DNA of 64,000 nt from a virus. Lineage: Duplodnaviria > Caudoviricetes. The position numbers and the translations under genes are program-made. The notes below the pieces were generated by a model, which worked only from the letters and a program-made list of their open reading frames with translations, made no database searches and had not been told where the DNA came from. Position 1 is the first letter of the stretch. Every line of letters begins with the position of its first letter. The stretch lies in IMG/VR virus record IMGVR_UViG_3300025389_001023, positions 50,542 through 114,541 of that record; one strand, given 5' to 3'. This document shows positions 32,629 through 34,618 of this stretch, one piece after another.

Positions 32629-34618
32629 TTTTTACCCCACTCATTATTGATGATTCGTTCTTTGATGTTTTTGCAGAGTCTTTAAATGCTTGTGCTGTGG
32701 GCGCGCCTTTGCTACCAGGCTTACGCATGTGTTCATGTGAACCATGTTTAATGCGTTCACGTTTTGCATGAATATTAGCCCATAGACCCGGGTGTTTGCT
32801 ATCAGCTTCCGCTACGCTTTCATTCCATTTCTCGCCACGCATCTGTTTTATAAATGTATTGACTTCCATGAAACCAAGATAGTTGTTGTCTACCAAATAT
32901 TTAATAATATCTTCTAATGATTTACCTTTACGCATCTCTTTATGAGCAAAGTCTACCATGTTGTAAAAACTGTCTTCGTGGTCAATAAACTCGGCATCGT
33001 GTTCACCTTCCGCTAGACCTTTTTGTTTTCTAACCCAGTAGTCAGGATTATGCCCATACAATTTAGCAAACATAACATGTAAGTCTTTACCATCATTGCT
33101 TAAATTATATTTTTTAGAAATAGCTTTCATTAATCTATCAACTGTGTCATAATCTATATTAGTTAATTTTTTTAGATTTTTTGCTAATACTTTTGCAGGA
33201 CGATTACCATCAACTTGTGCACCTTCCGCCACACCTTGCTTTACGCTTTCCATAGTTGATCTTGAGGTATTCATTGCTTTAATAAGCGAGGCATATAATT
33301 TATCACAGCTAACAATTACTGGTTTTAATGATTGTTCTATATATTGATTAGGAGATTTAGTATACAATGAATATTCTCTATATATCAACTCATCTTGTAT
33401 TTTATCAGCAATTTGTTGTCCCAAATACTTACCAGCAATTTGACTTAGTTTAGCCCCTTTATTTGCAAATTTTTCATTTTTACTAATTTCATATGCTAAA
33501 AAATAATATGCGGAACATTGTGCGGCAGTTTTGGCTATTTCGATTGTATTTTTATCTCTTTCGTCTTGATTTGTAAATTGTTGGCCATTGGCAACACCAG
33601 TCGCACCAGCACCCACAGCCGCCGCACCCAAGCCCTTTAAGAATCCTCTACGGTCTACTTCTTCTAATGAGCCTTCCGCCACACCTTGCTTAACAAACTG
33701 AACATTTAATTTAGCATTTTTCCACAATGGATTTTTAGGATCCATTCTTTGCTGTAGTAACCATATAGCAGATACTCTGTGTGCGCCATCTTCAAACTTA
33801 CCGTTTAATACTATTGCCGGAGGCAACTTCGCTAAACTTTCTGGATGATCCTTCAAGTAAGTAGCATACTCTATAACTTTTTTAGTGACGCCCCAACTAT
33901 AATCTTTAGCGTCCCAATCATCAACTACATTATTATAATAAGGCACCCCCGGCACAGATGATATAATATCTTTTACAGTCATTTGGCGAGTTTGTATTTT
34001 AGCATCGGAGCCAAACTGTTTTGGAGCACCTGAACTTGGTCCCGGTTGAGGGAAGCCTTCCGCCACACCTTGCTTGGCCATGGCAATTGCTGCCTGTTGT
34101 TTTCGTGTATGACCATGACTATTTTTTGCAACTTCATCCAACTCATCAGGATTTTCTAATTCATATTCTAAATCTTCAACTTGATTTTGTACATCACGTA
34201 GTTTATCTGTAAAGGCTTCTTCTAGACCATATACTGCTGATTCTAATTCATTGAATGCATCTAACACTTGATTCTCTGCATAGCGCAACTCACTGGCATC
34301 AATACCTGCTTTTTGTGCCAGTTGCTTGATACCATTCATGATACCATGTATAGTATCATCATGCTTAATAGCTTTAGTTGTTTGTCTTACTTGATTGATA
34401 ACAGCTTCTAAATTATATTGCTGTTGTTGCAATTGTTGAAGATTTTGTTGTATTTGTTCTTTGCTTTCAGAAATCATACCCAATGATTTCTTTAATGCAT
34501 CAGCTACACGCTTTTTACCACCCTTATCCATTTTATCAATAAGGGTTTTAACCTGCATGTAGTTAGTAGTATTAGCAATTTCTGCTTTTTCTTCTTCGGT
34601 AAGTTTTCTATAAGACAT
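32615..34618 (-). CDS. modular polyprotein: coiled coil, ParB/Srx-like domain, Tat-signal-led domain and small modules joined by (G)VAE(G) linkers
   Basis: three KQGVAEG linkers plus GLAEG and SVAEA; LPPAIV...EDGAHR; DRRGFLK. Confidence 0.75.
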   Translation of the reverse strand: MSYRKLTEEEKAEIANTTNYMQVKTLIDKMDKGGKKRVADALKKSLGMISESKEQIQQNLQQLQQQQYNLEAVINQVRQTTKAIKHDDTIHGIMNGIKQLAQKAGIDASELRYAENQVLDAFNELESAVYGLEEAFTDKLRDVQNQVEDLEYELENPDELDEVAKNSHGHTRKQQAAIAMAKQGVAEGFPQPGPSSGAPKQFGSDAKIQTRQMTVKDIISSVPGVPYYNNVVDDWDAKDYSWGVTKKVIEYATYLKDHPESLAKLPPAIVLNGKFEDGAHRVSAIWLLQQRMDPKNPLWKNAKLNVQFVKQGVAEGSLEEVDRRGFLKGLGAAAVGAGATGVANGQQFTNQDERDKNTIEIAKTAAQCSAYYFLAYEISKNEKFANKGAKLSQIAGKYLGQQIADKIQDELIYREYSLYTKSPNQYIEQSLKPVIVSCDKLYASLIKAMNTSRSTMESVKQGVAEGAQVDGNRPAKVLAKNLKKLTNIDYDTVDRLMKAISKKYNLSNDGKDLHVMFAKLYGHNPDYWVRKQKGLAEGEHDAEFIDHEDSFYNMVDFAHKEMRKGKSLEDIIKYLVDNNYLGFMEVNTFIKQMRGEKWNESVAEADSKHPGLWANIHAKRERIKHGSHEHMRKPGSKGAPTAQAFKDSAKTSKNESSIMSGVKNVSR
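33222..34075 (-). repeat. three exact 20-bp direct repeats AAGCAAGGTGTGGCGGAAGG
   Basis: copies at 33222-33241, 33672-33691 and 34056-34075; degenerate copies near 32806, 33006 and 34760. Confidence 0.92.

Follow-up and report, generated by a model that had tools for sequence, protein, structure and literature searches.

The subject of this report is an export signal that lies deep inside a phage protein. The DNA analyzed, referred to below as the window, is a stretch of 64,000 nucleotides (bases 50542-114541) of the 114.5-kb IMG/VR virus record IMGVR_UViG_3300025389_001023 (G+C content 35.5%), a contig of an uncultured giant T4-like lake phage with an estimated completeness of about 30% (CheckV). 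Its minus strand carries an open reading frame (ORF) for P0001, a polyprotein of 667 amino acids, in which the segment VDRRGFLKGLGAAAVGAGATGVANG is, judging from its sequence, a genuine twin-arginine (Tat) export signal that heads one cassette of this modular cargo polyprotein. Established here are the signal, its conservation, its fixed position behind glutamate sites, the variety of its cargo and the presence of a protease gene in relatives. We regard the chances as evenly balanced that P0001 is packaged into the phage head and cut at VAE↓G and/or LEE↓V (the arrow marks the cut), freeing a small helical protein that would be exported by the Tat system of the host.

An Internal Twin-Arginine Signal in a Modular Polyprotein

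Tat signals normally stand at the N-terminus of a protein, and the Tat pathway is suited to already-folded proteins. An earlier note on this DNA had proposed that such a signal is hidden mid-protein, just after a putative cleavage site. The peptide and the coordinates it gave are correct, the minus strand encoding GSLEE-VDRRGFLKGLGAAAVGAGATGVANG-QQF exactly as quoted, and its limits (33222-33671) are those of a single module bounded by two copies of an exact 20-nucleotide repeat (Table 1). The sequence D-R-R-G-F-L-K agrees with the twin-arginine consensus (S/T)-R-R-x-F-L-K, and both the module (24.1 bits) and P0001 as a whole (21.6 bits) exceed the curated cut-off of 16.7 of the NCBIfam profile TIGR01409 (TAT_signal_seq), which bears out the claim of a Tat signal. 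Residues 329-343, with the hydrophobic region (h-region) GLGAAAVGAGATGVA, form the sole uncharged run of at least 11 residues in the protein, and the domain of about 120 amino acids with two cysteines that had been described behind the signal is indeed found there. The twin arginine occupies positions 323-324 of 667, and the signal, as translated, is masked by the 320 residues upstream of it; an N-terminal location would result only after a cut at VAE↓G or LEE↓V.

P0001 consists of six modules strung together by the linkers KQGVAEG (three times, residues 182-188, 310-316 and 460-466), KGLAEG (residue 535) and SVAEA (residue 602). The six modules share no mutual similarity, i.e., several unrelated domains are combined in one polypeptide. 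By sequence match alone, the hydrophobic-x-Glu sites of P0001 are V-A-E↓G (three times), L-A-E↓G, V-A-E↓A and L-E-E↓V. The codons of the second KQGVAEG linker span positions 33671-33691.

Conservation of the Signal and of the Glutamate Site

A word-seeded search of 5.8 billion proteins found this element again in metagenome proteins, 87 of them long and 14 short. The twin arginine is invariant in all of them, as the earlier note had expected of homologues, and it nearly always stands exactly seven residues after VAE, in the arrangement QGVAEG-SLEE[IV]D-RRGFLKG[LM]GAAAVAGAAG. Since a word-seeded search favours a conserved signal, a second, codon-independent census was made, blind to codons and to the upstream sequence, in which a DNA pattern for RRGFLKGxGA was searched for in 2.9 million viral contigs (IMG/VR) and found in 58 distinct contexts. 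The signal lies more than 30 residues past the first in-frame methionine in 50 of these contexts, with a maximum of 988. A [LIVMF]-x-E tripeptide ends two, three or four residues ahead of the first arginine in 46 of the 58 (29, 9 and 8 contexts, respectively), the control value at random positions of the same ORFs being 8.4%. Just 23 contexts contain the GVAE linker, and the remaining 35 lack it yet retain the glutamate site. The LEE↓-type candidate site is the most general feature of these signals, and VAE↓G, located five residues further upstream, is the stronger, DNA-conserved candidate; the cut may fall at VAE↓G, at LEE↓V or at both.

The region behind the arginines is also constrained. 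Of 91 distinct signals, 55 have an A-x-A motif (control windows, 13.7%), its position peaking sharply at 22 residues behind the twin arginine. In 30 of these 55, the c-region includes a lysine or arginine, a typical feature of Tat signals. The sequences diverge beyond the h-region, with A-x-A nonetheless retained, and the codons of the Tat core are fixed as CGT AGA GGA TTC TTA. An internal Tat signal behind a putative glutamate cleavage site is more than a chance match.

No cultured relative with the linker or the signal was found among 50,697 phage records by megablast, blastn or tblastn, in which marine podophages matched just the C-terminal 45-60 residues of P0001 (phrog_16028). When related loci were searched for with a single Tat module as query, only its signal part matched. 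Note also that a distinct family, represented by the viral contigs L183, L192, L206 and L213, carries RRGFLKG up to 1,750 residues deep in very large ORFs, after NIDLS or IPNLS and with no glutamate site; this family is not accounted for by a model in which a protease unmasks the signal.

Linker DNA and Exchange of Modules

The exact 20-nucleotide linker AAGCAAGGTGTGGCGGAAGG encodes all three KQGVAEG copies of P0001, with identical silent positions, and is G+C-rich in an A+T-rich genome; degenerate copies lie at 33006 and at 34760, the latter within the adjoining gene P0002. Among the matches listed are more than 120 viral contigs, of 30-51% G+C, that contain the 20-mer without a mismatch. Of 375 GVAE sites in these loci, 64-97% have the codons GGT GTG GCG GAA GGC, the share being 91% or higher for each of the first four and 64% for the last glycine, a position at which the residue itself varies. 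Codon-level fixation of both linker and Tat core is consistent with cassettes being swapped in frame by recombination at the linkers, and offers no reason to regard GTG as a start codon. In appearance the linker is both a joint for in-frame recombination and a putative protease site, and, being fixed in DNA, it would be a clear example of phage genes exchanging cassettes in frame.

The record G002, a complete one of 359.6 kb whose DNA polymerase is 87% identical to that of the window, illustrates this point. The counterpart of the P0001 locus in G002 is a single ORF of 815 amino acids (G002:C1:251574-254021), the first module of which resembles P0002 and the last the end of P0001, with inner modules that are wholly different, one of them having two membrane helices. 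Since these inner modules differ and include no Tat signal, modules appear to have been swapped at the linkers between close relatives, the Tat module being optional and dispensable.

Cargo Behind the Signal

By BLAST, the cargo regions of 170 modules group into 52 clusters. Relatives thus hold RRxFLK right after an x-E-E or x-D-E site while the following domain varies, as had been predicted (46 of the 58 contexts; 52 cargo clusters). Eight relatives have a TonB_2/TolA C-terminal domain as cargo and two an M48 peptidase, each within the same linker-bounded module as the signal. TonB/TolA C-terminal domains work in the periplasm.

With just the mature domain as query, an exhaustive HMMER search returned P0103 as the sole real homologue of the P0001 cargo. 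It is the product of a stand-alone gene (171 amino acids, 48% identical) with the N-terminus MKTLREYIDQLDE↓ISRRGFLQG; two further matches were rejected as repeat or low-complexity. The AlphaFold2 model of the cargo is a helical bundle (mean predicted local distance difference test [pLDDT] 62, core 70-80), for which Foldseek gave no PDB match under E = 1 and hence no clue to function; its two cysteines fail to align with the cysteine pair common in the larger module family. The superinfection exclusion or envelope remodelling that was suggested earlier as its periplasmic role is a guess. In three viral contigs (L159, L161 and L208), the signal is directly followed by AMAKGGGGGGGHGG, a glycine run with histidine, which is an odd cargo.

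A Possible Route from the Prohead to the Periplasm of the Next Host

The internal proteins of T4 are loaded via the leader MKTYQEFIAE, which is then removed by gp21 (PMC8442874; PMC3012670), and the head proteases gp21 of T4, gp175 of phiKZ and gp245 of SPN3US all cut after glutamate (PMC5694885). In a comparable manner, P0001, or the P0002-P0001 pair, would enter the prohead via a capsid-targeting leader, as T4 internal proteins do, and a prohead protease of the gp21 type (Peptidase_S77) would cut after glutamate at the linkers QGVAE↓G and/or SLEE↓V. This cut would free a module of about 15 kDa with the Tat signal as its new N-terminus; TatABC of the host would then carry this helical domain, made beforehand, into the periplasm, and trimming by signal peptidase I would take place near A-N-G↓Q. 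Cleavage, packaging, ejection, Tat export and the action of the cargo are what we infer from the observations reported here.

Leaders that, judged by eye, are alike to the capsid-targeting sequence (CTS) of T4 are found on the genes flanking P0001, namely MRIKQIIE (P0002), MRATDFVTE (ORF 31422-32186) and MRAKEFVIE (a GH19 muramidase), and relatives of P0001 begin with MIIDDLFE, MNLNDLFTE, MRLKEF, MKIRDILTE and similar sequences. The start of P0103, MKTLREYIDQLDE↓ISRRGFLQG, is of the same kind. At least eight ORFs of the contig begin with the T4-CTS-like pattern M-[KR]-x-x-[DEQ]-[FIV]-[ILV]-x-E, and nine such ORFs are present in G002; those of the contig constitute a candidate set of head-packaged proteins. 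The stop codon of P0002 and the ATG of P0001 are 2 nucleotides apart, in different frames (junction 34618-34623); this split may be a genuine stop, a frameshift or an error of assembly.

With respect to the protease, the head block of G002 is of T4 type and comprises a Peptidase_S77, encoded at L123:1366-1998 on the minus strand and scoring over its cut-off, a scaffold protein and Gp23 with the N-terminus TKEALLE↓GL. Peptidase_S77 scores over the cut-off in seven of ten large carrier records, five of these seven being among the six records with a completeness of 90% or more, and it adjoins Gp23 and the scaffold protein in G001, G002 and G004, whose neighbourhoods were examined. In addition, a second class of signals, of the Sec type (E↓GWKDxxAGGAMxLGALGAxAxA), also starts right after linkers. 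Linker-selected loci contain 25 hydrophobic stretches, of which 9 have their start no more than 15 residues from a linker, versus 9.5% expected; the GH19 muramidase of the window (Table 1) offers an example of a Sec-like signal behind a glutamate site.

Several points weigh against this route. The Pfam model PF10518 (TAT_signal) scores 18.6, under its cut-off of 22.7, and the plausible peptidase site of the earlier note stands for the many relatives with a clean A-x-A and is weak in the P0001 copy (A-N-G↓Q or G-V-A↓N). The metagenome relatives were collected by shared words and are hence biased toward a conserved signal. The N-terminus of P0001 itself, MSYRKLTEEE, resembles a CTS weakly, the clear leader being on P0002 with a stop codon between the two. 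Neither protease nor capsid genes were found in the 114-kb fragment, no phage-encoded TatA or TatC was found in five records, and G002, the closest relative, has no Tat module.

The earlier note had interpreted the element as a signal that would be unmasked by cleavage in the head; this interpretation is partly supported, in that its computable predictions hold. A wider proposal, which we advance tentatively and with less than even confidence, is that an address code of two steps operates in giant T4-like freshwater phages, in which a capsid leader loads the polyprotein, cutting by the head protease at DNA-fixed linkers gives some fragments a Tat or Sec N-terminus, and the injected proteins are exported to the periplasm of the new host. 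The literature searched contained no description of a protease-unmasked Tat signal in phages, nor of a QGVAEG/GVAEG linker. If the proposal is true, the head cargo of phages would not be limited to the cytoplasm of the next host, and capsid proteolysis would write a new sorting address. Host Tat would deliver injected effectors, e.g., TonB/TolA decoys, peptidases or muramidases, to the periplasm, providing control of the envelope before any gene expression, and thus a new means of excluding superinfecting phages, of disturbing TonB/Tol-dependent uptake or of remodelling the cell wall at the onset of infection. It would also represent a natural design for sending pre-made proteins to a chosen bacterial compartment.

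Alternative Explanations

The signal might instead be unmasked in the producing cell, through a cytoplasmic cut by another phage or host protease or through the prohead protease acting on unpackaged protein, so that the module is exported late for envelope change and nothing is injected. Export at that stage would suit the stand-alone P0103, L154, L189 and L201, in which the signal lies 7-15 residues from the start and which could be exported directly after synthesis, uncut; moreover, the nuclease encoded at 29752-30576 has a true N-terminal signal, meaning that the phage also encodes a conventionally secreted nuclease and does export protein from that cell. This course of events nevertheless seems unlikely to us, as no cytoplasmic site-specific protease was found, no peptidase domain was detected in P0001 (Pfam, PHROGs, NCBIfam), and the cut sites follow the rule of prohead proteases, enzymes that act inside proheads. 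The CTS-like leaders would, furthermore, be purposeless.

It is also conceivable that cleavage does not take place at all, and that the Tat-like segment is an internal signal-anchor, with the N-terminal modules in the cytoplasm and the downstream part outside. Internal Tat signals do exist, as the Streptomyces Rieske protein demonstrates (PMC13186574), and some relatives without A-x-A (AGYKLGQ, AGYVGGV) could remain anchored; however, the Rieske protein has membrane helices upstream of the signal, and none was found in P0001. P0016 has two Tat signals flanking a J-domain, and in other relatives the Tat module is followed by ParB-like or P-loop modules. One uncut chain cannot satisfy the topology, and these proteins do not fit single-chain export. 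An anchor would also leave the conserved glutamate site 2-4 residues ahead of the twin arginine unexplained, and we consider it improbable.

Little credence is likewise given to the possibility that the signal is a relic, idle in the phage, of modules captured together with their signals from host genes for periplasmic proteins. The TonB/TolA C-terminal domains and the M48 peptidase do look cellular in origin, but one near-identical signal with conserved codons precedes 52 unrelated cargo clusters; being far better conserved than any cargo, it was not inherited with each of them. The retention of A-x-A sites despite varied sequence also speaks against an idle signal, and, to our knowledge, native TonB and TolA carry no Tat signal.

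Finally, the internal translation start that the earlier note had named as a possible explanation is very improbable and was rejected: translation from the in-frame GTG of the linker valine, found in 341 of 374 linkers among the matches listed (variants include ATG, in GMAEG), would yield MAEGSLEEVDRRGFLK... with an ordinary N-terminal Tat signal, but this sole in-frame GTG has AAGG only 1 nucleotide ahead of it, whereas genes of the window have AAGG, AGGA or GGAG 4-8 nucleotides ahead of ATG, no other start codon lies between the linker and the twin arginine, every linker codon is fixed with GTG in no way special (degenerate copies use GTA or CTA), the product would retain all downstream modules, and the contexts that lack GVAE have the glutamate site all the same.

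Neighbouring Genes and Other Modules of the Locus

The features of the locus are collected in Table 1. The GH19 gene product could be a head-delivered wall hydrolase or a signal-arrest-release (SAR) endolysin with an N-terminal extension. The last module of P0001 (residues 606-667, GLWANIHAKRERIKHG...; positions 32615-32803), which matches phrog_16028, also matches small genes of Pelagibacter, Synechococcus, Prochlorococcus and Roseobacter podophages with 60-77% identity, and is, by these matches, a tiny domain common to very different aquatic phages. Residues 468-532 of P0001 (positions 33005-33221) resemble the N-terminal part of the HExxH protein encoded at 19989-20558, 12 kb away (35% identity, E = 6e-4), and match an ORF of G002 (258553-259401; 43% over 69 residues) with the leader MRANDFTTE; one module has thus been used in different genes. 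The T4 late-promoter box TATAAATA occurs five times versus 11.7 expected, with no copy ahead of P0001, and the same search gave only GATAAATA upstream of P0002; these results have no bearing on timing.

Table 1. Location of the P0001 polyprotein, of the parts of its Tat module and of genes with related leaders or signals (window positions unless another record is named).
Feature	Position	Strand	Basis
P0001 polyprotein ORF, 667 amino acids	32615..34618	-	ORF call and translation
20-nucleotide linker repeat, first copy (residues 182-188)	34056..34075	-	Exact repeat
20-nucleotide linker repeat AAGCAAGGTGTGGCGGAAGG, encoding KQGVAEG (residues 310-316); candidate protease site V-A-E↓G, immediately ahead of the signal	33672..33691	-	Exact repeat
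GSLEE pentapeptide; second candidate cut site L-E-E↓V, 2 residues ahead of the twin arginine	33659..33673	-	Translation
Twin-arginine signal VDRRGFLKGLGAAAVGAGATGVANG (residues 321-345; twin arginine 323-324): twin-arginine motif, Gly/Ala h-region, weak A-N-G↓Q site	33584..33658	-	Translation, TIGR01409
Cargo, 120 amino acids (residues 346-465), predicted helical bundle, two Cys, C-terminal end ESVKQGVAE	33224..33583	-	Translation, predicted structure
20-nucleotide linker repeat, next copy; closes the Tat module	33222..33241	-	Exact repeat
P0002, 384 amino acids, CTS-like leader MRIKQIIE, one EQGVAEG linker; adjoins P0001 upstream	34621..35775	-	ORF call
GH19 muramidase: leader MRAKEFVIE, DDLEE↓GWKDWVAGAALGAAALGGHANVDA (Sec/SAR-like Gly/Ala-rich segment, 40 residues in), catalytic domain	30606..31421	-	Profile match and translation
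DNA/RNA non-specific endonuclease, ordinary N-terminal Sec signal MKKILLAVSLLILSISTSYA↓W	29752..30576	-	Translation
ORFs with CTS-like leader, window	3593-4867	+	N-terminal pattern
ORFs with CTS-like leader, window	19989-20558, 30606-31421, 31422-32186, 34621-35775	-	N-terminal pattern
ORFs with CTS-like leader, rest of contig	G000:C1 8451-8843, 8848-9741, 27245-28702		N-terminal pattern

Comparison with Known Systems

The site of action of T4 internal proteins is the cytoplasm, and we know of none that carries a Tat or Sec signal. The system proposed here, as far as it can be read from sequence, would resemble that of T4 IPI, IPII, IPIII and Alt in its MKTYQEFIAE-type leader, in cutting after glutamate by a protease of the gp21 family, in small and diverse cargo, in fast-changing loci and in delivery to the next host (PMC3012670; PMC8442874; PMC5694885). 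Differently from the T4 internal proteins, many cargo units are here combined in one polyprotein, the linker is repeated and fixed in DNA, and some of the units have export signals.

The signal itself shares with ordinary N-terminal Tat signals (TIGR01409, PF10518) the RRxFLK motif, a Gly/Ala-rich h-region, a basic c-region and, across the family, A-x-A. It differs from them in its location 320 residues inside the ORF (up to about 990 in relatives) and 2-4 residues after a glutamate site, and in an unusually conserved n-region, GSLEE[IV]D. SAR endolysins such as P1 Lyz have a weakly hydrophobic, Gly/Ala-rich export segment before the muralytic domain, and the GH19 protein of the window has a similar arrangement; in SAR endolysins this segment stands at the true N-terminus, whereas in the GH19 protein it is preceded by a CTS-like leader and an LEE site and lies 40 residues in.

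Polyvalent proteins, described from phages and conjugative elements (Iyer et al., 2017; PMC5512222), likewise comprise many unrelated domains per polypeptide and are believed to reach the invaded cell in packaged form and to be split into units; ParB-like modules are found in both systems. They are thought to be self-processed by a zincin-like MPTase domain, whereas P0001 has no peptidase domain, and signal peptides, twin-arginine motifs and linkers are not mentioned in that study. Finally, the Streptomyces Rieske protein also has a Tat signal away from the N-terminus (PMC13186574); there, membrane helices precede the signal and no proteolysis sets it free, whereas the modules upstream of the signal in P0001 are all soluble, and the signal would become N-terminal through a cut after glutamate.

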